DNA of 64,000 nucleotides from Ktedonobacteraceae bacterium. GTDB lineage: Bacteria > Chloroflexota > Ktedonobacteria > Ktedonobacterales > Ktedonobacteraceae. Within the stretch, counting starts at the first letter, position 1. The number at the start of each line of letters is the position of its first letter. A model generated the notes under the pieces. That model was not told the DNA's origin and made no database searches. It was given only the letters and a program-made list of their open reading frames with translations. The stretch spans positions 21-64,020 of the forward strand of contig DASVMX010000143.1 of NCBI GenBank assembly GCA_036384215.1. Direction: 5' to 3'. Below are positions 1,591-28,011 of the stretch, in pieces. The position numbers and the translations under genes were made by a program.

Positions 1591-1599
1591 ACGTGTTTT

Positions 1600-2166: not shown

Positions 2167-2418
2167 CGCTTCCCAATGTTTGCTTTTCCTCGCAAGAGTC
2201 AGATTTTTTCTCTAGCATGATCGCTTCCCAGTGTGCTACACTAGGATCTCATAAAGACAAGCGTCAGGACCGTTTGTCCAGAGAAGCGGGCAAAGCTCGC
2301 TCTTTTATCCTGATGAGATCAGTATAGGATTTTTCTGTTTCTTTTTGCGTCACTCAAAAGGGTGAATAGCGTTCGCTCTTTGGTGTGAGAGCCATCTTGT
2401 CCGAAAGGAGGAGGTGAA

Positions 2419-3093
2419 ATGGCGATACGGATTGTACTGGTGGATGATCATAGTGTGGTGCGAGAAGGGTTACGAATGTTCCTGGGACGCGATCCCGAAC
2501 TGGTGGTGGTGGGTGAAGCCAATGATGGAGCGGAAGCGCTGGATGTGGTACGTCAACTGCGTCCCGATGTCGTGCTCATGGACCTGTTAATGCCTGTACT
2601 GGATGGGATTACAGCGACCACCCTGATTCGCCAGCAATACCCGGAAACGGAGGTGATAGCGATGACCAGCGTGTTGGAAAGCGCAACAGTGGTCAACGCG
2701 ATCAAAGCGGGAGCGATTGGCTATTTGCTCAAGGATACGCAGGCGGGGGAACTGCAACGCATGATCAAGGCAGCAGCAGCGGGACAGGTGCAGCTTTCAC
2801 CCCAGGCGTCGGCGTATTTGATGCGGGCGATGCGCATGGACGAGGCCCATGGAGAGCAAAAGAAAGAGGCGCTGACCGCGCGAGAGACCGATGTGCTTCG
2901 TTTACTGGCGCAAGGGCACCCGAACAAAGAAATCGCGCGGCAGTTGCAACTGGTCGAAGATACCATCAAAACGCATGTCCGGCATATTCTGGCCAAACTG
3001 GGCGTGCAGAGCCGCACGCAGGCTGTCCTCTGTGCACTCGACCTGGGTCTGGTTTCTGCTGAATCAGCAAAGAAAACTACCATCGACTCATAG
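2419..3093 (+). CDS. Two-component response regulator, NarL/LuxR family (REC + LuxR HTH)
   Basis: The REC domain shows IRIVLVDDH and DVVLMDLLMP. The C-terminal LuxR HTH shows LTARETDVLRLLAQGHPNKEIARQLQLVEDTIKTHVRHILAKLGV. A strong SD (AGGAGGAGG) lies upstream. Confidence 0.9.
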   Translation: MAIRIVLVDDHSVVREGLRMFLGRDPELVVVGEANDGAEALDVVRQLRPDVVLMDLLMPVLDGITATTLIRQQYPETEVIAMTSVLESATVVNAIKAGAIGYLLKDTQAGELQRMIKAAAAGQVQLSPQASAYLMRAMRMDEAHGEQKKEALTARETDVLRLLAQGHPNKEIARQLQLVEDTIKTHVRHILAKLGVQSRTQAVLCALDLGLVSAESAKKTTIDS

Positions 3094-3174
3094 TTCTCAG
3101 CCAACTGCACAGCGCTGGCTCATCTTCTAACAAAGGATTGGCTGTTTTAAAAGAAAGCATGAGAGGAGCAATCG

Positions 3175-4314: not shown

Positions 4315-4526
4315 TCAGTAGTGACACTGGCGAGCGCCAATTCAGTATCATCCTGAAGACGGCGTAAGCCTGGAGAAGGGCCAGAGTCCTCGGTGCGAAA
4401 TGAAAAGCCCATCGATTTATACTAAAATGGGCCTTCAAGCGGCTTCTAGAGCCATTTCGCACCGCATAATAGTTCTAGTCTGGAAGGTACTCTGGCTTCT
4501 ACTCTATTGTTTGCCAGGCAAGAGCG

Positions 4527-6398: not shown

Positions 6399-6609
6399 AA
6401 TAGCTTCCTTCCTGTAAATGTTGTAATTGTTAGACTTCGATCAGTTCTTTGGCGGTGTAACTCCGTTTCATCCGGCGTTAAATTGTTCGATCAATAGTGG
6501 TCATTGTCATACTTCCTTGCCACATTATCTGTATATTTTTATCTCTCAATGTTGTATACTGCCGCTAAGATAGCTTAGCAGCCCCAAACAGCGCAAGAAC
6601 CCAGGACTT

Positions 6610-6768
6610 TCATCTACTAAATTCGTCAAGAATCATCGTCTTTTCATCTGTTAACGCCAGTAGGATAGACGCTGCACTATGCCGCAAGTCATGAATACGC
6701 ATATGCGGCAAACTCAGACCACGAAGTATTTTACCAAAAGCCCGCAGCAGGTAACTCGGATTAAAGCA
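6610..6768 (-). pseudogene. Tyrosine recombinase / phage-integrase fragment (C-terminal box II region only)
   Basis: Reverse-strand translation gives PSYLLRAFGKILRGLSLPHMRIHDLRHSAASILLAL followed by unrelated residues and a stop. HDLRHSAAS is the integrase box II signature. The fragment has no start codon, has a stop immediately upstream, and lies inside an AT-rich gap. Confidence 0.55.
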
Positions 6769-6847
6769 CTAGACTGAAGTAGAGGAAAATTGTGCTGCTG
6801 GCTATAAGCCTTCTTCAGATAACTCAACCGTCATGGCCTATGTAAAA

Positions 6848-6877
6848 TTGACAAAACACACAAAACATGTGTAAAAT
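6848..6877 (+). promoter_or_regulatory. Candidate sigma-70 promoter upstream of the regulator gene
   Basis: TTGACA (6848-6853), an 18-nt spacer, then TAAAAT (6872-6877). It lies about 155 nt upstream of the preferred start at 7033. Confidence 0.35.
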
Positions 6878-7032
6878 CTGAGGTGTGTTGCGAAAAATGG
6901 CCTCGTGTCCCGCCCTTTGCGCAAGGATAGAGGCTCTTTTTGAATAGTACGCGACACGGGTGCTCAAACAACGTCCCGTTGCTCCCTTTTCCGCTTCCAC
7001 CGGCGGCTGTATCTCTGCAAAGAGGTTATCTG

Positions 7033-10837: not shown

Positions 10838-12175
10838 TTACCCGACCTGGACGCGGGCGATGAGCAGGCTGGGTGCGCCGGCTCCATCGGCCAGGGGCGA
10901 GAACTGCAAATCGGAGCCACAGGCGCGCACATTCCGCAGCAGCTCGAAGATGTTGGCAGAAATGGGCACACCGCTGACGGGATAACGCGGCTGCCCCTGC
11001 TCAATCCACCAGCCCTGCACAACCAGGGTAAATTTGCCAGTGGTGCCCTGGATACGCCCGGGGCGCAGGACGCTGGTGACGATGATCCCGTGCTGGAGTT
11101 GCTGGCGCAATTCATCCGGCGTGGCGTTGCCAGCCTGAAGATAGACGTTCGAGGGCGCCGCCCGCGGCTGCTGCCAGAGCGATGGTTTCAACGCATTGCC
11201 TCCGGGCGTCGCGTTCAGCAGGTCCGCGCTGCGCAGGGTGTGCAGAAAGGCACGCAGCCGGCCCTGCTCCACCAGGGTGGTCGCACTCACAGGCGTCCCT
11301 TCATCGTCAAACGGGCGACTCTTGAGACCGGTGTGCAAGGCGCCATCGTCGATCAGCGACACCGCGGGCGAGGCAATGGGATGGTCGATGCTTTTGAGCA
11401 ATGGCTTGAGATCCTGGAGCACATTTTCGGCGGTCAGCAGCACGCCGAGGGAGCGCGCGATATCGGCGGCAGCGAGCGGCGGCAGGAGAACCTCGCAGGG
11501 ACCAGCGGGCGCCTGCCTCGAAGGCTCGTGCAAGAACACGAGATGATCGCTCACGTGCTGGCCGAGCGCCTCCAGGTCCAGGCCAGCAAAGCACTGGCTG
11601 GAGGCCGCCGTCGTGAGATGCCCGAACGCTCCCTCGGCCCAGATCCAGATGCGATAGTTGCTCGTCTGGCAAACCGCTCGCAGGCCGCGAGAGTTGACCA
11701 GCCCTGTAAATGAAGTTGACTCCGCGTAACAGGCGTGTACAATCAGCCCGGTCGCCGGCTGCTTGCTGCTGATTGTGGCCATGACCTCCTCGATCATGGC
11801 CCGTTTGCGCGCCTGGGCGAGCAACGGCTCCTGGGCGAGAGCAAATGGCGAGCAACTCCGCTCGCTGTTCAGCCATGCAGGCGAGGAGATGCCGCGCTGG
11901 CGCGCCTCCAGCACCGCCTGGCGAGCAATAGTGGCCAGGCCAGCAGCGGACAAATCATTGGTCGAGAGCAGAGCCAGCCGATCATCACACCACACGCGCA
12001 GCGCCAGCCCGCTCTGCCAGCCGCTGCTCTCGTTGCAGTGGTCTTGCTGGAGGGTGATACGCGTGGCCGGTCCCTGGCGCAGGTAGACATCAGCCTCGTC
12101 GGCGCCAGCATCCAGAGCCATATCCAGCAGTTGCGTGGCTCTCTGTAGAACCTCTGTGACCTCAGACATTGGCAT
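10838..12175 (-). CDS. pmbA: PmbA/TldE-family peptidase U62 subunit (non-catalytic partner)
   Basis: The N-terminus is typical of the family (LDMALDAGADEADVYLRQG..ITLQQ). No HExxxH motif is present. Its ATG overlaps the tldD stop by 1 nt (TAATG). Confidence 0.85.
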   Translation of the reverse strand: MPMSEVTEVLQRATQLLDMALDAGADEADVYLRQGPATRITLQQDHCNESSGWQSGLALRVWCDDRLALLSTNDLSAAGLATIARQAVLEARQRGISSPAWLNSERSCSPFALAQEPLLAQARKRAMIEEVMATISSKQPATGLIVHACYAESTSFTGLVNSRGLRAVCQTSNYRIWIWAEGAFGHLTTAASSQCFAGLDLEALGQHVSDHLVFLHEPSRQAPAGPCEVLLPPLAAADIARSLGVLLTAENVLQDLKPLLKSIDHPIASPAVSLIDDGALHTGLKSRPFDDEGTPVSATTLVEQGRLRAFLHTLRSADLLNATPGGNALKPSLWQQPRAAPSNVYLQAGNATPDELRQQLQHGIIVTSVLRPGRIQGTTGKFTLVVQGWWIEQGQPRYPVSGVPISANIFELLRNVRACGSDLQFSPLADGAGAPSLLIARVQVG

Positions 12176-13530
12176 TAGCCTCCCCAGACAAGCAATTGAG
12201 GAACGCGCAGAGCTGGCTGACCGACCGAGACAACCAGGGGAAACTGGTCAAGTTTGTTGCACAGATAGCAGTAGTTGAGAAACTGGCAATCCGTGCTGAC
12301 CCGGTCGATGGCGTGCAGCACCTTCGGCCCATGCCCGGAAAGCATCGTCCCCAGGATGGGAGCAGTGATGCGTCCATTTTCCACCAGATAGCCCTCATCC
12401 ACGCGCAAGTTGAAGCGGCCGGAACCCATATCGGTATCGCCGCCAGAGATGGACTGAACCAGGATGCCCTGCTTTGTCCCGGCGACGATCTCCTCGAAGC
12501 TGGACTCGCCCGGCGCGACATAAGTGGTGCTCATGCGCGGAAGTGGCTGATAGGCATAGCTCAGACGGCGACCGTGGCCATTGGAGGCCCGGCCCGCGCC
12601 GGCGCTCCGCCGATCGTAGAGATAGTTGCGCAGAATACCCTGCTCGATCAGAACAGTTGGTCTGGCCGGTTCGCCCTCGTCGTCAAAGTGATAGAGAGCA
12701 GCACTCTCGGACGGTGCCGGATCATCGATAACGGTGATGATAGGCGCCGCGACCTGCCGGCCCAGGCAGCCCGCGTACGCCGAACTGGCCTGGCGGGCGA
12801 TGTCTGCCTCGAGCGCGTGACCACAGGCTTCGTGCAGGAGCACGGCCGGACCACCTGGCCCCAGGATCACGGTCATCTCGCCGGAGGGTGCCTCGACCGC
12901 CTCCACGCGGAGCAGCGCCGCCTCCATAGCCTGGCGAGCAATCGCCAGATGGCTATCATCCTGGCACAGGCCGGCGAGATGGGTTGCGCCGACCGAGCGT
13001 CGGCTTTTACGCACCTTGCGCTCGTGACGCAGGACGACCTCAACGTGGATCGCGGCGTGGTCTCGCTGATCCCTCACAATGCGACCATCGGAGCGACCAA
13101 CCAGGACCGTCTGCCATGTCGCGACGACACGTGTTGTGATATGGGTTGTGAAGCGGGGGCTGCTATGGCGCCGCGCCTCGGCCAGCGCGGCCTCGGCCAG
13201 GCGCAGCATCTCGGCCAGCAGCCGCTCAGCGCCAGGCGTCTGGCACGTGGCAAACGCTGGCGCCGTCGGTCGGACCTCGTCGCGCAGGCAGGGAACGAGC
13301 GCCCTGACGCCCGCCTCCGACAGGTCCGGGGTATGGACGTACTGGCTGGTCCCATCGCGCACTCGCCGGAGGCCCACTCCCTGCTCGGTGCGCACGCGAG
13401 CGTTGCGCAGTTCGCCATCTGTCAACTCGTACACCGCGTTGGTGATACGCTCAGCAAAGAGATCGGCGAACGTATCACCAGAGCGCAGAACGTCCGCAAG
13501 TGCTGCGTGAACCACATCGTGATCAAGCAT
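12175..13530 (-). CDS. tldD: TldD-family zinc metalloprotease (peptidase U62)
   Basis: The catalytic motif is LLHEACGHALEAD. The TldD-like N-terminus reads FADLFAERITNAVYELTDGEL. An AGGAGG SD lies upstream. Confidence 0.9.
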   Translation of the reverse strand: MLDHDVVHAALADVLRSGDTFADLFAERITNAVYELTDGELRNARVRTEQGVGLRRVRDGTSQYVHTPDLSEAGVRALVPCLRDEVRPTAPAFATCQTPGAERLLAEMLRLAEAALAEARRHSSPRFTTHITTRVVATWQTVLVGRSDGRIVRDQRDHAAIHVEVVLRHERKVRKSRRSVGATHLAGLCQDDSHLAIARQAMEAALLRVEAVEAPSGEMTVILGPGGPAVLLHEACGHALEADIARQASSAYAGCLGRQVAAPIITVIDDPAPSESAALYHFDDEGEPARPTVLIEQGILRNYLYDRRSAGAGRASNGHGRRLSYAYQPLPRMSTTYVAPGESSFEEIVAGTKQGILVQSISGGDTDMGSGRFNLRVDEGYLVENGRITAPILGTMLSGHGPKVLHAIDRVSTDCQFLNYCYLCNKLDQFPLVVSVGQPALRVPQLLVWGG

Positions 13531-13753: not shown

Positions 13754-15244
13754 CTACCCCTGATGCGGCCGGGAAGCCGGCGCCCTGGAGAGCAAGCTTG
13801 TGGGAAATGCCACAGGGTTGCGCGTGGCCAGGATGATGTTGATGCTCGATGCATCGTAACAGTGCAGCGCCATAAGCCCGGCTCCGGCCAGGAGATCGGC
13901 ATATTCGTTCAGGGAAAGCAGATCGCCCTGCGAGGAGATAAATTCTTTGACCGCGAAGTAGAGCGAATTGAGTGGTCCGTCGCGTCGCTCATTGAGGACC
14001 GAATCAGCAATGAGCAGGACGCCATCTGGACGGAGCGCGCGTGCCAGACGCGCAAAGAGAGGCGGCAGATCCTGCGGGTGCTGGGTATGGCATACCTGCC
14101 CCAGAATAATCGCATCAAACGCATTTTCTCCATAATCGACGTGCAGGAGATCACCAGTCCAGAAACGGGCCTGGGCGGTCAGGTTGAGCCGCTCGATATT
14201 GCGCTGAGCCTGGGGCAACACCTGGGGTTGGTCCAGGAAGGTGACAATCGCGGTCGGCTCGGTGCGAGCGACCCCGACACCCCAGACGCCGGAGCCGGCG
14301 CCGACATCCAGCACGGCAGCGTGAGCGAGCGAGCGCCCCCGCGCCAGGGTCATAGCAACGGTGCTGGTAAGCTGCAAATACGAGGGGAAGATGAGCGTAT
14401 TGTATCTGGCCAGGGCCAGGTAGAAACTATTACTCTGTTCCGGGTCCTGCAAATCTAGAATGTGCCGATTGTGCAGAATAGTCTCGTCAAGCTGGCCCAG
14501 CGCCTCCCAGTACAGGCCCGTGAGGTGGCATCCCTGGCCATAAAAGAGCACGTTCCGCCGATTCAGCACACGCTGCGCCTCTGCACAGTAGCGATAATTC
14601 TCTCCATCTGCCTCCAATATTCCCAGTTGTACGAGGAGGGTAAGTAACATGTTCAGCCCGGCGGGATGCGCCTGGCAGGTCTCGGCCACCTGACTCAAGG
14701 AATACGTGCTCTCGCTAAAGAGGTGGAACAGATCCATTTCGGAGGCGCAGATCAGAGCCTGGGTTCGCAAGAACTGGCGAGCTACGCGGTCGAAGAGCTT
14801 TTCAGCTTCGTCCGGCACATCAGACGGAACATCCTTGACGGAGAACAGGCGGGTGTAGTGCTCTAGCAAATCCCAATTACAGCCGTCGTGCCGCACCGGG
14901 GCTCCAGTACGCACGGCTGCGGGCAGCTTGCGCGCCGGCTGCCACCAACGGCTGGCCTGGCTCAGGCGCCCGGTGAAAGAGCGGTCGTGGAGCGGACCGG
15001 CCAGCGCGGGGCTGAGCGCCAGACTGCCACCCTCATCCGCAGTCAGCACGCCGCTACCGACCAGCATCTCCGTCACGACACGTGTGCCCCGTAGCGAGGT
15101 CCCCAGGCGCCGTGCCAGTTGATCTACCCGCATTGTGTCCTGGCCGAGGGCGTCAAACAGCTTCAGGCGCAAGGCCGTATGCAGCACAGCCGAATCGACG
15201 CAGGCATATTTGGTTAAAAATTCCAGATCGTGAGCAAGATCCAT
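13754..15244 (-). CDS. Class I SAM-dependent (O-)methyltransferase with two N-terminal winged-helix/dimerisation-like segments
   Basis: The SAM motif I is VLDVGAGSGVWG, with a post-I FLDQP and LRPDGVLLIAD. The N-terminus has two OMT-dimerisation-like segments (SAVLHTALRLKLFDAL..VDQLARRLG and ICASEMDLFHLFSE..LSQVAETC). I moved the start from 15775 to ATG 15244 (SD GGAGAGGAGAGAG), because the track ORF otherwise overlaps the upstream gene by more than 350 nt. Confidence 0.85.
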   Translation of the reverse strand: MDLAHDLEFLTKYACVDSAVLHTALRLKLFDALGQDTMRVDQLARRLGTSLRGTRVVTEMLVGSGVLTADEGGSLALSPALAGPLHDRSFTGRLSQASRWWQPARKLPAAVRTGAPVRHDGCNWDLLEHYTRLFSVKDVPSDVPDEAEKLFDRVARQFLRTQALICASEMDLFHLFSESTYSLSQVAETCQAHPAGLNMLLTLLVQLGILEADGENYRYCAEAQRVLNRRNVLFYGQGCHLTGLYWEALGQLDETILHNRHILDLQDPEQSNSFYLALARYNTLIFPSYLQLTSTVAMTLARGRSLAHAAVLDVGAGSGVWGVGVARTEPTAIVTFLDQPQVLPQAQRNIERLNLTAQARFWTGDLLHVDYGENAFDAIILGQVCHTQHPQDLPPLFARLARALRPDGVLLIADSVLNERRDGPLNSLYFAVKEFISSQGDLLSLNEYADLLAGAGLMALHCYDASSINIILATRNPVAFPTSLLSRAPASRPHQG

Positions 15245-15417
15245 ATGCTCTCTCCTCTCCTGGTCCTTGAAAAGATCCTCGCACCCTATCCAGGCAGGAT
15301 TCTCCCGGCTCGCCCCTCCCTCGGGTGAGGGAGGTGGCGTCTCGTCTGTATGAGCGGGACGGCCGCCCCGGTGTTCGTCTGCCTGCTCAGCTGGAGTTCC
15401 CGTGCGAAGAGCTGAAT

Positions 15418-17565
15418 TCAGGAGGCCGTTTTCTCCGGGTAGAGATTCATCAGATAGAATGGTTTGTTGAGCTTCGTGCCCGGAGCCACCAGCGAGCTCT
15501 GTTCCCACGCGGCCACAGCCTCCGGCGTCGGATGTTCCAGGCATGCACGGGCCTGCTCGACGGTACCGAGCAAATCCTCGCAGAGTTCGATGCACAGGCG
15601 CCGTGCTCGCCGCAGGAGATTCCCGGACTCCTCTCCCTCCTGCAACTGATAAGCGCAGAGAGCGCGGGCGAGCAGGGATTCGGGCAGGTGATCGTAATCT
15701 CCAAGCTTTTCGCGCAACTCCACGCTGCGTCCATACCACTGATGAGCCTGGCGAAACTCGGCCAGGCGATAGCACAGGTAGCCGCAGGCTCGGGCGATGA
15801 TCTCGCTGTGAAAGCTATCCTCGCCAGCCACGGCTTGCTCATAGCTTTGCTTATAGCACTCCAGAGCAGGCGCCAGAGCCCCGGCCTTCATGCGCAAGCC
15901 GCCTTCGCGGAACAAATAGTGTTTGGCAAAGATTTCGTTCGCAACGCTCAGGAAGCTGCGAAAAAAGGTCCAGGTGGACAGCGCCTGCTCTAGCCGGCCG
16001 GTATCTTCGAGGAGCACGGAGATATTGGAGACCAAATTGACCTTGAGATGGGTCGCCTCTTTCTGATGCAGGGGCTTCATGAGCGAGAGCGCGTTCTGCA
16101 CCATGGTCATGCCATCGCGGTAGTGTCCCTGCTGGTAATTCATCAGGGCACTGACGTTGAGCAGCCAGCCGTGCTCCAGCACTGCCTCGGGAGTGGACAG
16201 CCCATTGATCGCCTGGAATCCCTGGAGCAGGTATGTTCGCGCCTGCTCGATACGGTGCAGGCGTTTGCCAGTGATCAGGCCCAGGTACATACAGAGCTGG
16301 GCGCGCATCTCCGGCGCGGTCGCCAGCTCCAGGGCCAGTTGATAGCAGCTTGACGCCGCCTCGTGATGTTCAAGAAAAGTCTGGGCCAGCGCAATGGCTT
16401 TCCAGGTCGCGATCAGAATATCGCGCCTCTGGTGGATTTCCGCCACGGAGAATTCGAGTGCGACATAGAGATCATGGGCGGTCAGCGGCTTCCAGATAGC
16501 TTTAAAGCGCTCGACATCAAATTGCTCATCGCTGAGTACACCGAGCAAGACGATAATCTGCCGCCCCAGGAAAAGCACGGTCTCCATGTTGAGGACGAAC
16601 AGGGCCAGGCGCGTAGCCTGAAGCGCATAGGCACATCCCTCTTCGATCTGTCCCTGCGTGAAATGAGACAGGGCCAGTTGGGTTGCCTGCGCTTCATCGC
16701 ATGGTCCTCCAGAGACAGGGTCAACGACAGCAGAAACGGCCGCCATGGTATCAGCATCAGAACCGATGTCTGGCAGCGCGATTTCCTCTCCAAGCAACTG
16801 GCTCCGCACTCGCTCTAACAGCCGGGCATGTTCCCTCCGCCAGTCGAGGAAGCCCGCGATCTCCGCTGGCAGCGAGTGCTCTTCAGCAGAGGTTCCAACA
16901 ACAGCGGACTCGCGCAGCACACCCACCAGCACCAGGGGGATATGGGCCTGATTAATCCAGCGATTGAGCCGGCGGAAGGTCAGCAGAGTCAGGCGGTCGG
17001 CTGCCTGTAGCTCATCCCACCAGAGCACCAGAGGTCCCCGGGCTAGCGTCGGACTGGCCTGACGGGCCTCGATCACAAACTGGCAGAGGCCATTGATCAT
17101 GCGGAAAGCCTGCTCGGACTCGCGGTGAGAGCGGCGCTCGGATGGCGTCAGAGCAATCTGGGAAAGCGAGAGCGCCGGCTGGAAGCCCAGGCGGTCCATC
17201 AGCTGGGGATGGAGCGCGCTCAACTCCGCCGCGTAGCGCTGGATGATCTCCGGCGTCTCCTCGGCCACCAGCGGTAGCAACTGCTCCAGGAGTTGGCGGA
17301 CCGGCCAGAACGAGATCATCCCAGGCTGGAGACAACATACATGCAGCATGGTGCCACCTCGCTCGCTGACGAAGTGGCGATACTCCTGGCGGTGATCCTC
17401 AAGAGCAGCACCCGCACCCTGCGCCACGATCAGCAGGCTGCGAACGGTGGTTGGATCGCAGTCCGCGGCCTGGCGATAGAGGGTCTGGAGGCGCTGCTCT
17501 ATCCGCGCTTCCTGCTGCTGATGTAAAGGCTCCGCCTGGACGACGGGTCTAGAAGTGGAACTCAT
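15418..17565 (-). CDS. STAND-like/TPR repeat protein, paralog 1 (degenerate P-loop)
   Basis: Paralogous to 22038-24344 and 41291-43285. Shared blocks are SERRSHRESEQAFRMING, LVLWWDELQAADRLTLL (Walker-B-like) and HLKVNLVSNISVLLEDTG..FFRSFL. The C-terminal half is TPR-like. QGAGAALED sits where the P-loop should be. The preferred start is ATG 17565 (SD AAGGAG). Confidence 0.75.
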   Translation of the reverse strand: MSSTSRPVVQAEPLHQQQEARIEQRLQTLYRQAADCDPTTVRSLLIVAQGAGAALEDHRQEYRHFVSERGGTMLHVCCLQPGMISFWPVRQLLEQLLPLVAEETPEIIQRYAAELSALHPQLMDRLGFQPALSLSQIALTPSERRSHRESEQAFRMINGLCQFVIEARQASPTLARGPLVLWWDELQAADRLTLLTFRRLNRWINQAHIPLVLVGVLRESAVVGTSAEEHSLPAEIAGFLDWRREHARLLERVRSQLLGEEIALPDIGSDADTMAAVSAVVDPVSGGPCDEAQATQLALSHFTQGQIEEGCAYALQATRLALFVLNMETVLFLGRQIIVLLGVLSDEQFDVERFKAIWKPLTAHDLYVALEFSVAEIHQRRDILIATWKAIALAQTFLEHHEAASSCYQLALELATAPEMRAQLCMYLGLITGKRLHRIEQARTYLLQGFQAINGLSTPEAVLEHGWLLNVSALMNYQQGHYRDGMTMVQNALSLMKPLHQKEATHLKVNLVSNISVLLEDTGRLEQALSTWTFFRSFLSVANEIFAKHYLFREGGLRMKAGALAPALECYKQSYEQAVAGEDSFHSEIIARACGYLCYRLAEFRQAHQWYGRSVELREKLGDYDHLPESLLARALCAYQLQEGEESGNLLRRARRLCIELCEDLLGTVEQARACLEHPTPEAVAAWEQSSLVAPGTKLNKPFYLMNLYPEKTAS

Positions 17566-17854
17566 CGCAACCTTTCTCCTTTTTTGCAGAGAGAGAACCG
17601 GGGCACGAGGCACGAAGGGGCAGGCAAGCTGTCCCTCTGCCTGCGGGTTGACCGCAAGAAAACCGAAGCACGAAGAGACAGGCAAGCGGCGGGACAACTT
17701 CTCGCGGCGCGAGAAGTCGCCGATGACCTGGCGTCATTGACCTTGCCGACGCAGCCTATCTGCGTTGGGCCCCCTGCAAACACATGAACCGCACCCTCTC
17801 TTCCCCCTGCCCTCTCAGCCTCTCATCTCTCAGGAGGGAGTTCGGGGAATGATC

Positions 17855-18111
17855 GGGGGAACGGGTTCGCTTGTAGTGTAGCCAGAGAGTTGGCGCCTTG
17901 CCAGAGACACCAGTACGCACCGAAAGAGTATCTTTGTACTCTCACCCATATTGTTTCCGCAAAACTGCGAGCACGACCGGGTGAGCCATCTCGCTGACAA
18001 GTATCATAATACTTCTTGCGCCGGGACATATGTCCCCCTGGCAGTGTATCGATGAACCTAGACAGGAGAAAAGACGCTGGCTACACTACAAGCGGACCCC
18101 TTCCCCTGACC
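17855..18111. repeat. Inverted-repeat-bounded element, copy 1 (arms about 17855-17885 and 18077-18111)
   Basis: The left arm is GGGGGAACGGGTTCGCTTGTAGTGTAGCCAG. The reverse complement of the right arm is GGTCAGGGGAAGGGGTCCGCTTGTAGTGTAGCCAG. The arms are homologous to those at 37831-38178. Confidence 0.6.
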
Positions 18112-18299
18112 ACCCTGCTGGCTTCCTCCTGCCTTCAGGAGGCTGAGAGGGCATGGCAACCCCCGGCTACAACGGGTGCCAGAACCAGCAAGCAAGGCAG
18201 TAGCTTTGCGTTGAGGGAGGGTATGGTAGGGGAAAAGGGATCTTCTATAGGACAATCGTTGTCTTTTGGAATGTCTCTTCATCCTTTTCGGAGGTTTTT

Positions 18300-18734
18300 A
18301 TGGAAAAGCCCGTTACTTCGACGACTCCATCCCATGCTCAGCAAGCGCCAGAGCCTGCCGCGAGCGCCCCTGCGCAGCAGCCGGCACCTGTCGCGCAGTC
18401 TGGCGCTGTCCCGACGGCGCTCGTGGCCCCTGGCGTCGTGCCCGCAACCGGGGAGCAGAGCACCGCAGCGGCTGCACAGCCCACTGCGACGCCCACGACT
18501 CCTGCTACACCTGCCGCGGGACAGACGGCTCCGGCGCCCGCGACGCAGGCTCCCGCCGCGCCCGCCGCGCCCGCCGCGCCTGGCACTCCCGCTGCGGGAC
18601 AGGGCAGCCCGGGAAACCCCGCGCCCGCGGCACAGGAGCAGGTTGTCTTCGATGAACTGGAAGAGATTGAGTTTCTCCTGGATGAGATTGAGGACCAGAT
18701 TGCTCCGCTCGCGCTCCAGGCTCCCCTGCGGTGA
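18300..18734 (+). CDS. Pro/Ala/Thr-rich small protein with acidic C-terminal helix (candidate scaffold/precursor peptide)
   Basis: GGAGG lies 5 nt upstream of the ATG. It is the first gene of the plus operon. Codon usage looks natural in this frame, whereas the overlapping frames are Arg-rich. The C-terminus is QEQVVFDELEEIEFLLDEIEDQIAPLALQAPLR. Confidence 0.6.
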   Translation: MEKPVTSTTPSHAQQAPEPAASAPAQQPAPVAQSGAVPTALVAPGVVPATGEQSTAAAAQPTATPTTPATPAAGQTAPAPATQAPAAPAAPAAPGTPAAGQGSPGNPAPAAQEQVVFDELEEIEFLLDEIEDQIAPLALQAPLR

Positions 18735-18903
18735 GCTGACCCCTGCTGGCCTGGCCCCCCCGGAGCTGGTCTCGTCGCCCGGGGCTGCTCTGTGGGTAAG
18801 GCGAGCAGGCCAGGGCACCAGAACCAAAGAGCGTGGTGCCACTCGCGCTGTCCCGGCCCGTTCCAATGCCGGGGCGGGCTGGTCTCCCGCCTCCGCGCCT
18901 CTA

Positions 18904-18936
18904 CCGATCATCCGGGCGCGGGAAACGGATGATCGG
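18904..18936 (+). other. Stem-loop between the candidate precursor gene and the flavin reductase gene
   Basis: CCGATCATCC, a 13-nt loop, then GGATGATCGG. No U-tract follows, so it is not a classical terminator. It could act as an attenuator or processing site. Confidence 0.3.
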
Positions 18937-18962
18937 GAAAATCACGAAAGGAAAAGTATTCG

Positions 18963-19517
18963 ATGCATCTAGTGCAAAACCAATCCACTCCACCGCAGCA
19001 ATTGCCTCTCTACCGCTATTTTGCCAGCACAGTGGCGCTAATCACCTCGCAAAGCGAGGGCCAGCAGCGGAACGTTATGGCCTGCGAGTGGACGATGAAC
19101 GTCTGCCGGCATCCCCTGAAGATTATGACGCTGATCAATAAGGACGACCTGACCCACGAGCTGATTATGGCCAGCGGTGAGTTCGGGGTAAATCTGTGTT
19201 CGGAGGAACAGAGTTCCCTTTCGCACTTTGCCGGCAGCAACACCGGACGCGAGGAAGATAAGCTCCACAATACGATCTTTAACGGCCTGCTATATACCGC
19301 GACGCGCATCCAGGCTCCGATGATTCGGGGGTGTGTGCTCAATGCCGAGTGTGTGGTCGAGCAGGCCATCGACATGGGCAAGCACACGGCCTTTATCGGG
19401 CGGGCTCTGGCCGCCCGGCTTAATCCCAACCTGCGCCCTTTGCTGTACCACCAGGGCTGCTATCTGCGCTGTGGCGAGGTGATTCCCAAGCCCGAACACT
19501 CCGCGCAGGAGGTCTGA
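18963..19517 (+). CDS. Flavin reductase-like FMN-binding domain protein
   Basis: The sequence follows the PF01613-like pattern: FASTVALITSQSEGQQRNVMACEWTMNVCRHPLKIMTLI..GEFGVNLCSEEQSSLSHFAG..DKL..HTAFIGRAL. Confidence 0.8.
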   Translation: MHLVQNQSTPPQQLPLYRYFASTVALITSQSEGQQRNVMACEWTMNVCRHPLKIMTLINKDDLTHELIMASGEFGVNLCSEEQSSLSHFAGSNTGREEDKLHNTIFNGLLYTATRIQAPMIRGCVLNAECVVEQAIDMGKHTAFIGRALAARLNPNLRPLLYHQGCYLRCGEVIPKPEHSAQEV

Positions 19518-22057: not shown

Positions 22058-24344
22058 AAACAGGAAGACCTCCGCTCACAGCGCCGAGCTGACCTTCCCG
22101 GCGTTCGAGGAGCGGCGCTCGCCCGTTCTGTGGCTGGTCGGGGAGGAGATTGCTGGCGCGGGCGACGCGATGGACGCGGCCGCGCACGAGGCCGAACAGC
22201 ATGGTCATCTGTCGGCCCACCTGCGACTGCGGGGGCGGCGCTCGCATTCTTTCCTGGGATTGAAACAACTGCTGGCCCACCTGGGGCCTATCCTGCGCGC
22301 CGAGGCTCCCGACCTGCTGCGAACCTGCGACACCGAGTGGGTCACGCTCTTCCCCGAGGCACGCGCAGATCTTTTCTTTCAACAGACCCGGCCGCTCGAC
22401 GAAATCGCGCTGCCCTCCTCTGAACGCCGCCTATCTCGGGAGTCTGAGCAGGTCTTTCGCCTGATTAACCGGGGCATTACCCTGATCCTGACAGCCCTTG
22501 ACCAGTGCCCATCTCTGCGAGAGCGGGTCCTGTGGGTCTGGGTCCATAACCTGGACTTTGGTGATCGCCTGACCATCCACGCCCTCCACCATCTGTGCCG
22601 CCGCTCACATCCACGCGTGCGCCTGGTCGCGTCTCTGCAACAGATGCCAGAGCGGACCAGCGACGCTCGGGAGGCGGCGCCGGAGGGCGATCTCATCAGG
22701 CGCCTGCTGAACGATCAAGCAACGTTTGCGCGCTTCCTGGCGCATGTCGCCGACGATATCGCGCCCGACCTCATCTTCCTGTATCCCTGGAGCCGGGAGG
22801 GGGTCCAGCGCCATGTGCTCACGCAGCACCCGGAGCGGGCAGAGCAGATCGACGAGATCAGCGCCTGGAGCAATGGATCTCCCGTGCTGGTTCAGGCGCT
22901 GCTGGAGCATGGCGAGTACCTGGCCGATCCGTCCCATGGCTGGCAGGAGGCAGAGCGCGAATACCTGCGCCACTACCGGGCTACCTACGCGACAGAGGTC
23001 GTCTTCAGTGCCGCCGGGATCTGTCCTCCTACCCGCCCACGTTTCCTGTTGATGGAACGCGTGATCGCACCGATGAAGATCGAGCCGGAGGAGATGCGCC
23101 GCTACCATCGGCTGCTCTGCGAGCGTCTGGTTGCCAGCGGACGACCAGCAGACTGGTCGGAGGAGGAATATCAGAGCCACCTCTGCTACCATGCCTTCCA
23201 GGGCGGCCTGTATGCTGAAGGGCTCGACCACCTGGGCAAAGCCGTCACCCCATCGATCCACTGGGGCAATTACGAGAATGTGCTGGCTCTGCTCAAGCAA
23301 GCGCTGCGGGCCGGGCAACAGACCAGCTTCGCACAGGCAGAGCTCGTGGGTCTGTGGAAATGGTGCGGTCTGGTCCAGGCATACATCGGCAATTTCGCCG
23401 GAGCCATGGAAGCATATCAGCAGGCGCTGGAGATAGCTACCGCGCCCGCGACCAGAGCACAGCTCTACGCCTATCTCTCCCTCCTGGCAACCAAACGGCT
23501 GGCGGATTTCAGCCAGGCTGAACAACTCCTGGATGCAGGCCTGGCCGAAATCGCAGGCCGCGACGACGATGAGAGCACCGTCGAGCGGGCCTGGCTGTCC
23601 AATATTCGGGCGCTTTCCCTCTTTTCCCAGAAGCAGCACGCTCAAGCCTTCGCGTTGTGCAAAAGCGCGTACGACGTGATTCGCTCCACCCACATCGATG
23701 GCGTACTGCATCTGAAAGTCAATCTGATCTCCAATATGAGCGTTGTAATGGAGGAGATGGGCAATATCGCTGGCGCCCTCAAGGCCTGGCATTTCTTCCG
23801 GCCCTTTTTGCAGGGAGACAATCAGCTCTTCCAGAAGACCTACTACTATCGCGAGGCGGGCCTGCTACTCAAGCAGGGAGAAACCGAACAGGCGATCGAG
23901 CTGTTTCGCACCTCGTATCGACAAGCCGAGGCCACGCATGACGCCTTCCACATGGATTTCATTGCCCGAGACATCGGCGCCCTGTACTATCACAGGCAGC
24001 GTTGGGACGATGCGCGAGAATGGTTTGCGCGCAGCGGAGAAGCCGCGATACAGGCGGGCAATGTCTCACGGGCACAGGGAGCTTGTGCTGCCCGGGCGCT
24101 GGTGGCCTGGCACGCAGGCCAGCAGGCGGAGGCCTGCGCTCTCCTGCGCGACCTGCTGGCAGGACCGGCGCTCGTCCCGGCGCGTCGCTCACGGTGCGAG
24201 GCCCTGCTGGGAGAATGGCAGGGCGCGGATTCCGGCAACGGACCCCAGGAAGTCGAGCGCAAAGAAATCGGCTGGCCTCGCACCAAGCTGGGTCAGCCAT
24301 TTTACCTGATCCATATTCCGGCCGGACATGTTATTAAGGAATGA
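22038..24344 (+). CDS. STAND-like/TPR repeat protein, paralog 2 (degenerate P-loop)
   Basis: Shared blocks with paralogs 1 and 3 are SERRLSRESEQVFRLINRG, VLWVWVHNLDFGDRLTIHAL and HLKVNLISNMSVVMEEMG..FFRPFL. The C-terminal half is TPR-like. The start is uncertain (21996, 22017 or 22038). Every option overlaps the end of the upstream LanB-like gene. Confidence 0.75.
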   Translation: MIIDHIENRKTSAHSAELTFPAFEERRSPVLWLVGEEIAGAGDAMDAAAHEAEQHGHLSAHLRLRGRRSHSFLGLKQLLAHLGPILRAEAPDLLRTCDTEWVTLFPEARADLFFQQTRPLDEIALPSSERRLSRESEQVFRLINRGITLILTALDQCPSLRERVLWVWVHNLDFGDRLTIHALHHLCRRSHPRVRLVASLQQMPERTSDAREAAPEGDLIRRLLNDQATFARFLAHVADDIAPDLIFLYPWSREGVQRHVLTQHPERAEQIDEISAWSNGSPVLVQALLEHGEYLADPSHGWQEAEREYLRHYRATYATEVVFSAAGICPPTRPRFLLMERVIAPMKIEPEEMRRYHRLLCERLVASGRPADWSEEEYQSHLCYHAFQGGLYAEGLDHLGKAVTPSIHWGNYENVLALLKQALRAGQQTSFAQAELVGLWKWCGLVQAYIGNFAGAMEAYQQALEIATAPATRAQLYAYLSLLATKRLADFSQAEQLLDAGLAEIAGRDDDESTVERAWLSNIRALSLFSQKQHAQAFALCKSAYDVIRSTHIDGVLHLKVNLISNMSVVMEEMGNIAGALKAWHFFRPFLQGDNQLFQKTYYYREAGLLLKQGETEQAIELFRTSYRQAEATHDAFHMDFIARDIGALYYHRQRWDDAREWFARSGEAAIQAGNVSRAQGACAARALVAWHAGQQAEACALLRDLLAGPALVPARRSRCEALLGEWQGADSGNGPQEVERKEIGWPRTKLGQPFYLIHIPAGHVIKE

Positions 24345-24400
24345 AGAGGCGTCGTATGCTGTCGCAAGATGCAAACAGGAAGAAGACAGGTAAAAAACCG

Positions 24401-26881
24401 ATGAACAAAGCATGGACACTCGCTCCTGATTTCATCCTGAGAAGTACCGGCTTCCCACTGTCCTGGATCGAGCCCCTGCGCTTCACTGGAACGGTGGAAG
24501 CCATTCACCGCCTGCTCGCGGAAGAGCAGACGCTGGCCCGCCTGCGAACTGACTCGCAGGAGAAGCCACAGGCCGACTGGATTCACGACCGCGATGCCGC
24601 GCTGCGCTGGAAGAAGCTGAAAAAGAGCCTGGCCAGAGGAAACGCTATCCCAGAAGAAGAGATCCGCTGGGTGCAGCACCTGGAAGGGCCGGCGGCGGAA
24701 CTGACGCAACTCAACACAATGCTTGAACGCTGCCTGCAACTTGAGCAGGCAGCCAGGCAAACCTTTGAGGCCGAGATGGAGGAAAAACGCCGGGTTCTGC
24801 GCGAGATCGTGGCAGATCCGCGCTTCCAGGAAGCCATCTTCCTCTCCAGTCCCCATATGTTCTTCCAGGGACTATTGCCGTATATTCGCACAGAACAGAA
24901 AAAGCGCAATACGGAGAGCAAAAGGCTGGAGAGGCAGTTGATCGCGTATCTACAACGTCTGGTCGGGAAGAACGAAACGACCAGCTTTTTTGGTCCGATC
25001 AACTACGGCAGCTTTGACCGGGAAATCAGTGAAGAGGGCGCCGAGCAGGATAAATGCTTATCAGTGCGCTATACCTATCAGAGCGCGCTCCAGCACCGTG
25101 AAACGTTTATGGCCTACTGGGCGGTACAGGCTCTGGCTGACGCTTTTACCGCTCAACCTGCGGTGTATCCCTATCTGACGCCGATACGCAGTTTTCTCTT
25201 CCAGTTGCTCGATAGCCAGCAAGTGCAATCTGGCCTGTCCCAGAAGCGCCAGACCCTGGCTCCAATCGAGTACCAGGTCCTCCTGCTGGCCGATGGTCGC
25301 CACACGATTGCGCAACTGGAGCAGGAGATGCAGCGAGAGCGCGAGGAACTGCGAACTATCCTGCAACGCCTGGCGGATCAGCAGCTCCTGCGCCTGGCCT
25401 GGGAGGTTCCGGTAACGGAGACGCGCTGCCTGGAGTGGCTGGTCATGGCCACGGAAGAGGTGCGCGAGGAGACGCCCGAGATCGAACGCTGGCAGCAGGG
25501 GCTGAGACGCCTGCGCCAGATCAAAGACACTTTCTCACCTGCCGCGCTGGAGGAAAAAGCCGGGCTCCTGCACGAGGCCGAGGAAGTCTTCCAGGAGCTG
25601 ACCGGGCAGGAGGCCGCCCGGCGCGGCGGGCAGATGTATGCCGACCGCCTGCTCTTTTACGAAGAATGCAAGGGCCATCTGGCCGATCTGCGCCTGGAGC
25701 CACAGGCGCAGAAGGATTGGGAAAAACGCCTGGCCGGCATCCTGCACATGAGCGCGCTGCACTCTCTGGAGATGAAAAAGCAGCAGCGGCGCTTTGCCCT
25801 CGATGTCTACCGGGAGCTCTATGGTGACTCCGAGCGGCCAGTGCCCTACCTGCGTTTCCTGGCCGATGTAATGCACCACGCGAACCGGGAGCGCTGGCAG
25901 CAGGAATTCGCGCAGATCCAGAGCGCCATCGCCAGCGCGGTCACCCGGCAGATCCAGGCGCTGGCGCTGGCTGGCCAGGGCAAGCAGGTTACGCTGACCT
26001 CCGAGGATCTCATCGGCCTCTGCGCATCGCCCGAGCTGGCAGGGGACGATCCCCTGTTCTGCTCGCCCGACCTGATGTTCGTACCCGCGACAGGCCAGCT
26101 TGTCGTGGGCGAAGTGCACGACACGGTCATGCTCTGGAGCTGGGCACTGTCCTTTCACTCCCAGGCCGAGCGAGTGCAGCAAAGCATGTGGCACCTGCTT
26201 GAGGAAACCGTAGATTGCCAGACAATCAATATCCTCTCGTCGAAGCGGCTCAAAATCGCGCCATTCGAGTATCCTGGCGCCTCCGTTCAGGTGAAAGCCC
26301 GCTCGGTCAGTCAACGCCATGAGAAGCGAGCCGCGGCAGATCTCTCCGTACGCCCTGGAGCTGGCAGGCTTGAGCTCCTGCTGGCAGGCAACGAGGAACC
26401 GGCACAGGTCTATAATGGGGAACTCCACACGATGACGCACGACTGGTTTGCCTTGCCCGGCGTCACCACCTTTCGCATCCACACAGGCCAGCACACACCT
26501 CGCGTGGTTATCGAAGACGTGATCTATCAGCGCGAGCAGTGGCACCTGACACGCGCCGACCTCCTCCAGCCCAAATATACCGGCACCTCCTTCGAGCTCT
26601 TTTACGATCTGCTGAAAATGCAGCAGGCGTGGGAAATGCCTGACTACATCTTTGTCAGGATCAGCGGCGAGCCAAAGCCCCTCATGATCGATTTTCACAA
26701 TTTCTTCCTCCTGGAAATGTGGGAGGCCTTTCTGAAGGAAGGGCGCACAATGGTGGTCAGCGAAATGGTGCCCGCCCCCAATCAGCTCTGGCTGACCGAC
26801 CGGGAGGGCCAGACCTACGCCGCGGAATTTCGCACATCGGCGTTTTTCCGTCCGGTGCAGCGGGAAGGAGCAGGCGCTTGA
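24401..26881 (+). CDS. LanB N-terminal domain-only protein, small LanB / PEARL-like, paralog 2
   Basis: Motifs are FILRSTGFPLSWI, PRFQEAIFLSSPHMF, RLERQLIAYLQRLVGKNETTSFFGPINYG, MYADRLLFYEECKG, HTPRVVIEDVIYQREQWHL and KPLMIDFHNFF. I chose ATG 24401 by alignment with the paralogs. The track start is 24341. Confidence 0.8.
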   Translation: MNKAWTLAPDFILRSTGFPLSWIEPLRFTGTVEAIHRLLAEEQTLARLRTDSQEKPQADWIHDRDAALRWKKLKKSLARGNAIPEEEIRWVQHLEGPAAELTQLNTMLERCLQLEQAARQTFEAEMEEKRRVLREIVADPRFQEAIFLSSPHMFFQGLLPYIRTEQKKRNTESKRLERQLIAYLQRLVGKNETTSFFGPINYGSFDREISEEGAEQDKCLSVRYTYQSALQHRETFMAYWAVQALADAFTAQPAVYPYLTPIRSFLFQLLDSQQVQSGLSQKRQTLAPIEYQVLLLADGRHTIAQLEQEMQREREELRTILQRLADQQLLRLAWEVPVTETRCLEWLVMATEEVREETPEIERWQQGLRRLRQIKDTFSPAALEEKAGLLHEAEEVFQELTGQEAARRGGQMYADRLLFYEECKGHLADLRLEPQAQKDWEKRLAGILHMSALHSLEMKKQQRRFALDVYRELYGDSERPVPYLRFLADVMHHANRERWQQEFAQIQSAIASAVTRQIQALALAGQGKQVTLTSEDLIGLCASPELAGDDPLFCSPDLMFVPATGQLVVGEVHDTVMLWSWALSFHSQAERVQQSMWHLLEETVDCQTINILSSKRLKIAPFEYPGASVQVKARSVSQRHEKRAAADLSVRPGAGRLELLLAGNEEPAQVYNGELHTMTHDWFALPGVTTFRIHTGQHTPRVVIEDVIYQREQWHLTRADLLQPKYTGTSFELFYDLLKMQQAWEMPDYIFVRISGEPKPLMIDFHNFFLLEMWEAFLKEGRTMVVSEMVPAPNQLWLTDREGQTYAAEFRTSAFFRPVQREGAGA

Positions 26882-28011
26882 AAACCACGAGCGACGTGAT
26901 TATCGTCGGCGCGGGGATCGTCGGTTGTATGCTGGCCTACTGGCTGCGCAAAAGCGGACGCAGCGTGCTGCTTTTCGAGCGCGGCCAGCCCGGCCAGGAG
27001 GCATCTGGCGCCTATGCCGGTCTGCTCTCGCCCGCCGCCGAGGGGCACGTGGAGGGACCGTACGCGAGCCTCTCCCGGCAGGGGCTGGCCGCGCTGCGGG
27101 AGACTGTGGCGATCCTCCAGGACGAGACCGGCCTTGATGCCGGGCTGGCCTGCGCCCCTCTTTTTCGCGTCGCTACCAGTAAGCAGGAGGGCGAGGTGCT
27201 GTACCAGTACTGGCAGAAGCAACGTACCCTGGGCGGTTCGGCGACATGGCTGGAGGCAAGCGAGGTGCTGGCCGCAGAGCCTGCCTTCTCGCCGCGGATC
27301 ATCGGGGCCATGCGCAGCCCGGAGGAATATCACCTGATGCCCCGCTGCCTGCTGCCGGCAGTAGTCGCTGCCGGCCAGTTGCGCGGCGTGCGGATGCTTG
27401 CGGGAACCGCGGTCAGCCGCCTGCTCACCCGCGGACAGCGCGTCATCGGCGTAGAGGCCGGGGGAACAATCTACCAGACGGAGCAGGTTGTGCTGGCCAG
27501 CGGCGCGTGGTCGCCCGCCCTGCTGCAACCACTCGGACTGGAACTGGCGGTCGCGCCCAAACGCGGGCAGATGCTGACGATTGTCTGTCCTGATTTTCCG
27601 CTCGCTTTCATCGTCAACACAGCCTGGGGCTATCTCGTACCCAAGTCCGACAGGAGCATTGTCGTTGGGGCAACGCAAGAAGACGCGGGCTTTGTCAAGG
27701 CCGTGACCATGTCGGGAATAGCCCAGCTCCTGCGCGTGCTCTCGGTCCTGCCTCCCCTGATGCACGCCACCCTCCAGCAGACCTTCACTGGCCTCAGACC
27801 GATGTCCGCGGATGGGATGCCCCTCCTGGGGCCAGTGCCCGGTTGGGAGGGGCTCTGTGTCGCCACCGGGCACTCCCAGCATGGGATTTTGCTCTCCGAT
27901 ATCACCGCTCGTATGGTCACCGCTCACCTCAATGGAGAAAATCCGGGCGAGCATTGGGCAGACTTTCAGGTCGCCCGCGCCCTCACCCCAGGAAAGGACC
28001 ACGTTCTATGA
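26878..28011 (+). CDS. FAD-dependent oxidoreductase, glycine oxidase (ThiO)/DAO family
   Basis: The dinucleotide fold is DVIIVGAGIVGCMLAYWL. Other ThiO-like segments are VVLASGAWS, KRGQML, GLRPMSADGMPLLG and VATGHSQHGILLS. The TTG start at 26878 (SD GGAAGGAG) overlaps the upstream stop (TTGA). The stop overlaps the next ATG (ATGA). Confidence 0.85.
   Translation: MKTTSDVIIVGAGIVGCMLAYWLRKSGRSVLLFERGQPGQEASGAYAGLLSPAAEGHVEGPYASLSRQGLAALRETVAILQDETGLDAGLACAPLFRVATSKQEGEVLYQYWQKQRTLGGSATWLEASEVLAAEPAFSPRIIGAMRSPEEYHLMPRCLLPAVVAAGQLRGVRMLAGTAVSRLLTRGQRVIGVEAGGTIYQTEQVVLASGAWSPALLQPLGLELAVAPKRGQMLTIVCPDFPLAFIVNTAWGYLVPKSDRSIVVGATQEDAGFVKAVTMSGIAQLLRVLSVLPPLMHATLQQTFTGLRPMSADGMPLLGPVPGWEGLCVATGHSQHGILLSDITARMVTAHLNGENPGEHWADFQVARALTPGKDHVL

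Follow-up and report, generated by a model that had tools for sequence, protein, structure and literature searches.

The open reading frame (ORF) at 18300–18734 on the forward strand of the window, that is, of the whole 64,000-nt stretch of contig DASVMX010000143.1 from a Ktedonobacteraceae bacterium analysed here, encodes a polypeptide of 144 amino acids followed by a TGA stop codon. The translation agrees with that given in an earlier note on this DNA, in which the product was suggested to be a scaffold used by peptide aminoacyl-tRNA ligases (PEARLs). Based on homology, the gene very probably encodes an AmmA/BhaA-family pearlin carrier (scaffold) peptide in a pyrroloiminoquinone-type gene cluster of this Ktedonobacteraceae member. 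The gene and the features within and directly around it are as follows, in window coordinates.

18290–18294, forward strand: Shine-Dalgarno sequence GGAGG, read from the sequence
18300–18734, forward strand: scaffold-peptide gene, 144 aa plus TGA, AmmA/BhaA (ammosamide/lymphostin) family
18300–18623, forward strand: P/A/T/Q-rich N-terminal extension, codons 1–108, from composition and AlphaFold2 disorder
18552–18580, forward strand: perfect tandem repeat CCCGCCGCG, period 9, 3.2 copies, 100% match, encoding PAA-PAA-PAA
18624–18716, forward strand: acidic amphipathic helix ending IAPLAL, codons 109–139, from invariant columns and an AlphaFold2 helix at residues 109–138 (predicted local distance difference test, pLDDT, 81–93)
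18663–18689, forward strand: EIEFLLDEI, codons 122–130, containing the FLLD box; counterpart of the BhaA recognition residues DIDFDLEEI
18699–18716, forward strand: IAPLAL, codons 134–139; counterpart of the (A)PLAL(A) motif (PMC11962472)
18717–18731, forward strand: tail QAPLR, codons 140–144, whose CAG at 18717–18719 stands where both syntenic relatives have their TAG stop
18904–18936, forward strand: hairpin with a stem of 10 bp, a loop of 13 nt and no T-tract, 27 nt ahead of the flavin reductase ATG and 170 nt after the scaffold stop

The C-terminal part of the protein matched the NCBIfam model NF033737 (Amm_Lyn_leader) over residues 118–139, scoring 37.0 bits (cut-off 30; E = 2.6e-9). The exact protein is present in NCBI as HEX7734149.1, annotated as 'ammosamide/lymphostin RiPP family protein' (RiPP, a peptide made on the ribosome and modified after translation), from a third-party-annotation metagenome-assembled genome of a Ktedonobacteraceae bacterium. 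The identity of the scaffold is therefore not new, being already captured by a curated hidden Markov model (HMM) and by public annotation. The block EIEFLLDEIEDQIAPLAL, residues 122–139 of 144, shows 67% identity to AmmA and BhaA, both of them characterised scaffolds, and together with the model match and the NCBI name this bears out the PEARL ('pearlin') scaffold proposed before. Near the C-terminus, an acidic helix of the form [DE]I[ED]F.L[DE]E[IV]E with IAPLA(L)(A) behind it was found, its columns being invariant across relatives; the functional block shares 17 invariant alignment columns with active-type relatives.

Family members were collected by a profile search over 1.84 billion representative proteins, which gave 78 members, and a second profile search, which gave a set of 162 sequences; a first protein search with the 43-aa C-terminus had returned only 4 matches, a consequence of database-size E-values. 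All 78 representatives carry a C-terminal LDDLxDIEFLLDEIE[DN][QK]IAPLA behind a variable N-terminus that is often rich in P, A, S, T and E. The same division into a conserved C-terminal block and a variable N-terminus was seen in the syntenic clusters, beside LanB-like genes, as had been expected of a scaffold. A genome scan identified 44 loci in named genomes, belonging to Myxococcota, Actinomycetota (including lymphostin-producing Salinispora) and Dormiibacterota. The four closest relatives, of 66–74 aa, share the gene order scaffold, flavin reductase, tetratricopeptide repeat (TPR) protein, PEARLs. Myxobacterial members (P0155 from Pyxidicoccus and loci L003–L024) are named 'Xan family putative trans-acting RiPP leader peptide' by NCBI, so that one scaffold family goes under two database names.

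AlphaFold2 predicted no secondary structure for residues 1–108 (pLDDT about 50–65), and the confident helix behind this disordered region matches the arrangement of a docking helix after a disordered stretch. The helix, EIEFLLDEIEDQ, followed by IAPLAL, makes up the C-terminal ~30 residues, which are predicted to be the functional scaffold module.

Over 18300–18640, all three forward frames and one reverse frame are open, and the frame test applied to the P/A stretch in six frames (codon-usage log-likelihood and GC content by codon position) was uninformative. Both findings would suit a P/A-rich protein of the envelope or of linker type that is unrelated to the family, or a spurious ORF arising from GC-rich sequence of low complexity. 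The other open frames (18016–18972 on the forward and 18279–18911 on the reverse strand) were discarded, as their translations are Arg/Cys/Trp-rich nonsense. The GGAGG that the earlier note placed 5 nt before the ATG was read at 18290–18294, followed by TTTTT and the ATG. The only in-frame canonical starts are this ATG at 18300 and GTG at codons 42 and 47; an internal start at either GTG was set aside, there being no Shine-Dalgarno sequence at these positions. As the start closest to the block is GTG codon 47 and the sole start with a Shine-Dalgarno sequence is ATG 18300, the reading frame is fixed, and with the nearest in-frame starts at codons 42 and 47, at least ~70 residues of the P/A stretch are co-translated with the conserved block. 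Given also the curated family match, the conserved C-terminal block, the synteny and the lack of a signal peptide or domain in the protein, a linker protein or spurious ORF is effectively refuted. The gene was identical in an independent Logan assembly of run SRR10695388, which had one mismatch in 3104 nt, at the intergenic position 17856. A search with a family HMM built for this analysis over all six-frame ORFs of the window returned this ORF as the sole match (E = 7e-16); there is only one scaffold gene within the 64 kb.

The stretch of about 110 low-complexity residues described previously was recovered: residues 1–111 consist to 75% of P/A/T/Q and to 53% of P and A. The region before the block comprises 115 aa, against at most 70 aa in 79 other members measured, and the whole protein 144 aa, against 30–94 aa (median 61.5) in the 161 other family members, making it the longest member found, 50 residues beyond any of the others. 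Its N-terminal P+A fraction (0.51) is also the highest among the 162 sequences. Judged by the alignment, the extension appears to be the variable region of the family, expanded here about 2–3 fold. The three tandem units that had been located at about 18551–18577 are real, though the repeat begins one base later, at 18552; the perfect 9-bp repeats point to slippage-type expansion. In BhaA the N-terminal part is dispensable, and a 14–20-mer tag works when fused to maltose-binding protein (MBP), enhanced green fluorescent protein (eGFP) or lysozyme (PMC11962472, PMC9850906), so a long disordered N-terminus should be tolerated. By analogy, the P/A-rich N-terminus is probably dispensable, and the data do not require a specific function for it. 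Two scans of metagenome contigs for close relatives with a long N-terminus or tail gave no locus in the first and only the Dormiibacterota-type locus L047 in the second.

The scaffold gene is encoded beside enzymes that contain only the glutamylation domain of LanB-type proteins (PEARLs), with synteny in the relatives L001, L002 and L048. The neighbouring genes are the following (FAD, flavin adenine dinucleotide).

10838–13530, reverse strand: TldD/E-like protease pair, counterpart of Amm12/13 (function: PMC12424672)
15418–17697, reverse strand: TPR protein a, divergent from the scaffold gene, 47–50% identity over ~670–690 aa to the TPR gene after the flavin reductase in L001/L002
18963–19517, forward strand: flavin reductase (PF01613), syntenic in L001, L002 and L048
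19529–22057, forward strand: PEARL-like 1, LanB N-terminal domain only, 842 aa
21996–24344, forward strand: TPR protein b, divergent BhaC1/AmmC1-like paralogue
24341–26881, forward strand: PEARL-like 2, 846 aa
26719–28011, forward strand: ThiO-like FAD glycine oxidase, counterpart of BhaG/Amm14 (DAO 1e-65; TIGR02352 243 bits; role: PMC11117183)
29989–32520, 32480–34978 and 35040–37592, reverse strand: three further PEARL-like genes
41252–43285, forward strand: third TPR paralogue

The earlier note had described an operon leading from the scaffold gene through a flavin reductase and LanB-like, TPR and oxidase genes to an 'rSAM-like' gene (rSAM, radical S-adenosylmethionine). The order flavin reductase, LanB-N-only protein, TPR protein, LanB-N-only protein and DAO/ThiO-like oxidase held, and the 'rSAM-like' label proved weak. 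That ORF (27843–30083, forward strand) probably starts at ATG 28008, preceded by AGGAAAGGA and overlapping the stop of the oxidase gene in ATGA, which gives 691 aa. It had no Pfam match, only a partial 35-bit match to rSAM_ocin_1 and no CxxxCxxC; lacking this motif, it is not a canonical radical SAM enzyme. No homologue of it was found in any related locus. The true start of the oxidase is probably downstream of 26719, because its DAO domain starts at residue 59.

The five LanB-like proteins (832–850 aa) contain PF04738 only and are 28–34% identical among themselves. PEARL4 and PEARL5 are 47–50% identical to the PEARLs of L002, and the protein encoded at 35040–37592 matches the PEARL TglB (PDB 6EC7). 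TPR protein a is, from its sequence, the best candidate for a Trp trihydroxylase of the BhaC1/AmmC1 type, a class of TPR-containing, flavin mononucleotide (FMN)-dependent hydroxylases described in PMC9850906; a PDB sequence search with it gave 0 matches. Among the three BhaC1/AmmC1-type TPR paralogues of the cluster, only TPR protein a is orthologous over its full length to the TPR gene that the syntenic clusters carry, while TPR protein b and the paralogue at 41252–43285 share mainly the C-terminal half. In the cited pathway literature, no such set of hydroxylase-like paralogues is described for either amm or bha. The flavin reductase is presumed, by analogy, to supply FMNH2 to the TPR-FMN hydroxylase. 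In the TldD/E-like pair, the protein encoded at 12175–13530 keeps HExxxH (HEACGH at residue 233) and that at 10838–12175 is without it, resembling heterodimers of catalytic TldD and non-catalytic TldE. Hence the partner set of a TPR-FMN Trp hydroxylase, a glycine oxidase and TldD/E is present as judged by homology. Within 10 kb of 46 family loci, TPR homologues occurred at 25, TldD/E homologues at 20–24 (TldD at 24) and PEARLs at 18–19.

An O-methyltransferase fusion, a SARP-type regulator and transporters are also found in the cluster. The O-methyltransferase fusion (13754–15775, reverse strand, 673 aa) has dimerisation and methyltransferase domains at residues ~323–633, preceded by a region of ~320 aa with only a weak match to a DprA winged helix. 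The G+C content is 0.59–0.64 across ~10000–46000 of the window and 0.53–0.58 in the flanks (except for a bin of 0.59 at 54–56 kb), which suggests that the biosynthetic cluster is a compositional island; it may have been acquired horizontally. In the syntenic metagenomic relative L001, two nonribosomal peptide synthetase (NRPS) genes (condensation–adenylation–peptidyl carrier protein, C-A-PCP, and the same with a thioesterase, C-A-PCP-TE) and a radical SAM/lysine-aminomutase-like gene lie directly upstream of the scaffold gene (514–8128). This gene set hints at a hybrid pearlin–NRPS pathway, as in the lymphostin or sna cluster.

Two hairpins lie between the scaffold and flavin reductase genes. 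The 10-bp stem-loop reported earlier is present as a perfect stem, CCGATCATCC/GGATGATCGG, at 18904–18913 and 18927–18936 (−20.4 kcal/mol, z = −2.7). The earlier note had likened it to the stem-loops found after RiPP precursor genes, but a role as terminator was not supported: a terminator scan did not call the hairpin, and there is no T-run behind the stem. Hairpins of 9–11 bp with loops of 13–14 nt and no T-tract occur in the same gap in L001 (10266–10297) and L002 (5061–5092). Stem sequences and positions differ among the three syntenic clusters, the hairpin lying 170 nt past the stop here versus 65 nt in the relatives. The hairpin may act in mRNA processing or stability and so set how much scaffold is made relative to the enzymes. 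The other hairpin, long, imperfect and GC-rich, follows the scaffold stop directly at 18735–18815 (−47.8 kcal/mol, z = −2.1). An Rfam scan of 17600–19100 gave only sub-threshold miRNA noise.

Beyond the family membership, the synteny, the predicted helix with its disordered region and the stop-codon alignment, which the present analysis establishes, a working cycle can be proposed in which all steps follow from homology to the bha and amm pathways. PEARLs use ATP to phosphorylate the carboxylate at a scaffold's C-terminus, to which they join an amino acid taken from aminoacyl-tRNA (PMC11117183). In the bha pathway, Ala and then Trp are added to ...APLAL and BhaC1 oxidises the Trp to a hydroxyquinone; further PEARLs and the glycine oxidase deliver nitrogen from Gly-, Leu- or Asn-tRNA (PMC11117183). 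In the amm pathway, AmmB4 adds Arg, after which the TldD/E-like Amm12/13 releases a dipeptide and regenerates the scaffold (PMC12424672). By homology, the enzyme classes of both pathways appear to be present in the window. The PEARLs would activate the C-terminal carboxylate with ATP and add residues from aminoacyl-tRNA, the expected ones being Ala and then Trp. The TPR-FMN hydroxylase, provided with reduced flavin by the adjacent flavin reductase, would grip the acidic helix in its TPR cleft and trihydroxylate the terminal Trp. Further PEARLs and the ThiO-like glycine oxidase would install amino groups on the quinone, and the TldD/E pair would cut off the modified residue(s), freeing the scaffold for the next round.

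Which enzyme reads the acidic helix bears on a further claim of the earlier note, that FDEL and FLLD form a box docking on the RiPP recognition element (RRE) of LanB-like enzymes. Such a mode of action, in the style of a lanthipeptide leader, takes some credit from a superficial F-x-L-D resemblance and from the fact that PEARLs are LanB homologues that retain the RRE (PMC11962472). The evidence from BhaA assigns the box differently: the PEARL can do without it, and the TPR-FMN hydroxylase cannot. Replacement of FDLE by AAAA left BhaBC-Trp fully active and deletion left it partially active, and AlphaFold3 predicted no RRE contact for BhaA, as likewise reported for TglB (PMC11962472); by these results, the RRE of the PEARL is dispensable in the BhaA system. 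The PEARL requires the BhaA segment from about K33 to the PLALA end, with the (A)PLAL(A) motif guiding the scaffold C-terminus into its active site (PMC11962472). For BhaC1, the TPR-FMN hydroxylase, the nine residues DIDFDLEEI proved essential (PMC9850906). In agreement with the earlier exclusion of a lanthipeptide core, and contrary to what a class I precursor (LanA) would show, Cys is absent from the entire protein, and its last 33 residues contain neither Ser, Thr nor Cys. The protein is also without Trp, and 10 of the last 33 residues are acidic. Neither a full LanB with the PF14028 elimination domain nor a LanC was found among 30 ORFs scanned, all five LanB-like proteins having PF04738 only. 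Docking of the boxes on the RRE is thus very improbable.

The tail behind the helix requires a separate explanation. The earlier note regarded a short tail as a scaffold hallmark, which did not hold, since the family typically ends APLA, APLAL or APLALA and the ancestral stop here reads CAG. Because CAG (Gln140) aligns with TAG in both syntenic relatives, QAPLR represents translated former 3′-untranslated region (3′-UTR), and the five extra C-terminal residues appear to result from a change of the ancestral TAG stop to CAG. In 139 of the 162 members, the end is APL, APLA/G, APLAL/GL or APLALA, with at most three residues past APL; the closest relatives all end ...APLAL or ...APLAR. The protein here, ending ALQAPLR, is neither a short peptide nor one with its carboxylate directly after APLA, APLAL or APLALA, as is typical. 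This does not bar membership, as accepted members also carry tails (Salinispora ...APLALASNEAIQWRR, Kitasatospora ...TTEPSRW, Dormiibacterota ...APLARRMR), but it matters for the mechanism. Among L026, L047 and P0013, a basic tail (...APLARRMR) is conserved in the members of Dormiibacterota type, and ...APLAR is the end of one Ktedonobacteria-like relative.

Conversion by BhaC1 is minimal when a five-residue insertion separates the recognition residues from the Trp, and the tail therefore probably needs trimming. By this analogy, QAPLR is most likely removed before a canonical cycle, for example by the TldD/E pair or a carboxypeptidase. In the amm pathway the Arg added by AmmB4 serves as a protease recognition handle (PMC12424672), and an Arg that the gene itself encodes at the C-terminus might have a comparable function. 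If instead the tail is used as it is, the PEARL would extend from Arg144 and the cluster enzymes would be co-adapted to an acceptor five residues farther from the helix. The end ...APLR does mimic the commonest family ending, ...APLA (61 of 162), Arg-ending members exist (APLAR, APLARRMR), and BhaBC-Trp accepts any C-terminal residue as well as Ala-block insertions upstream of PLALA (PMC11962472). However, with CAG standing against a stop in both syntenic relatives and close relatives ending APLAL or APLAR, the tail looks recent and not co-evolved, and the BhaC1 insertion result also speaks against direct use. We consider direct use of the tail unlikely.

Several observations weigh against the assignment to a working AmmA/BhaA-type scaffold. 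The peptide end is not at the canonical acceptor position, and in view of the BhaC1 result the untrimmed form may be a poor substrate. None of the 44 family loci in named genomes is from Ktedonobacteria. Codon-usage log-likelihoods in the P/A stretch (−0.05 for the annotated frame versus −0.09 and −0.10) did not discriminate the frames. The amm halogenase, asparagine-synthase-like amidotransferase and dipeptidase were absent among the ORFs scanned, so that the product probably differs from ammosamide.

Loss of the stop codon and runaway low-complexity expansion could also be read as decay, leaving a poor substrate and a cluster that is silent or inactive in this organism. The protein is unique in both length and tail among the 162 family members and forms a single-member protein cluster, and the window holds no second, compensating scaffold gene. 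Against this stand the perfectly conserved functional block with its 17 invariant columns, a strong Shine-Dalgarno sequence, a frame kept intact through 108 low-complexity codons and partner enzymes that are all intact long ORFs; moreover, neither BhaB nor BhaC1 is blocked by an N-terminal fusion partner of the size of MBP or eGFP (PMC11962472, PMC9850906). A decaying scaffold is on balance improbable. It is also doubtful that either unusual feature, the P/A N-terminus or the QAPLR tail, is functional and not accidental. The former could be a protease-resistant 'bristle', resembling proline/alanine/serine (PAS) sequences, that would shield a reusable scaffold from being threaded by its N-terminus and degraded, 'pencil-sharpener' fashion, by the TldD/E of the same cluster, and the latter could be a 'pro-scaffold' tail primed by C-terminal proteolysis, which if true would give the pathway a built-in activation step.

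As a scaffold of the AmmA/BhaA family, the protein is ordinary in kind and stands out by two peculiarities, its expanded N-terminus and the tail left by stop loss. It places a pearlin cluster (PEARL-dependent, for a Trp-derived quinone) in the Ktedonobacteraceae of the phylum Chloroflexota, a group from which no named-genome locus was obtained. With five PEARLs and three BhaC1-like TPR paralogues, the cluster could add to the aminoacyl-tRNAs that PEARLs are known to use and could make a new product of pyrroloiminoquinone type. The gene also represents a natural experiment on how much N-terminal ballast the scaffold family tolerates and on the effect of an acceptor carboxylate displaced by five residues, and both bear on the use of the BhaA tag for C-terminal protein labelling.

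Among known systems, class I lanthipeptide leaders (FNLD box, NisB RRE) share an acidic F-x-L-D-like motif and LanB-family enzymes with the cluster described here. They differ in that no Ser/Thr/Cys core is present here, the enzymes have no elimination domain, and the box, as known from BhaA, is required by the TPR hydroxylase but not by the PEARL. The 3-thiaglutamate system of Pseudomonas syringae is similar in that TglA, a scaffold of ~50 aa, is extended at its C-terminus by the PEARL TglB, whose structure 6EC7 is matched by one PEARL of the window. Unlike the present system, it has a scaffold of another family without the APLAL helix, adds Cys, uses TglHI chemistry and relies on an M50 protease instead of TldD/E (PMC10885120).

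The lymphostin-type scaffolds of Salinispora have the conserved helix, APLAL(A) and residues past the motif (...APLALASNEAIQWRR). Their tails are conserved across species and contain Trp, whereas the tail described here is without Trp and corresponds to 3′-UTR sequence in the closest relatives. Lymphostin clusters include NRPS–polyketide synthase genes. AmmA (Amm6; ammosamide C, Streptomyces sp. CNR-698) belongs to the same NCBIfam family and is identical at 14 of 21 positions over ELEEIEFLLDEIEDQIAPLAL; the amm cluster, too, combines several PEARLs with a TldD/E pair (Amm12/13), a glycine oxidase (Amm14) and a methyltransferase. In the literature the AmmA construct is of 50 aa and ends in ALA-W; the cluster here differs from amm in its three TPR paralogues and in having no halogenase, amidotransferase or dipeptidase of the amm kind among the ORFs scanned.

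BhaA from Bacillus (Halalkalibacterium) halodurans C-125 is 39 aa long, as against 144 aa here, and ends exactly in PLAL, to which the Ktedonobacteraceae protein adds QAPLR. The bha cluster is from Bacillota and has seven PEARLs, compared with five in this member of the Chloroflexota. Like the cluster described here, bha combines several PEARLs with a TPR-FMN hydroxylase (BhaC1) and a glycine oxidase (BhaG). The ...APLAL end point of BhaA is the same as in the closest relatives of the Ktedonobacteraceae protein, and in the block itself EIEFLLDEIEDQIAPLAL and DIDFDLEEIEDKVAPLAL, from the 20-residue minimal substrate of BhaA, are identical at 12 of 18 positions and similar at 17 of 18.

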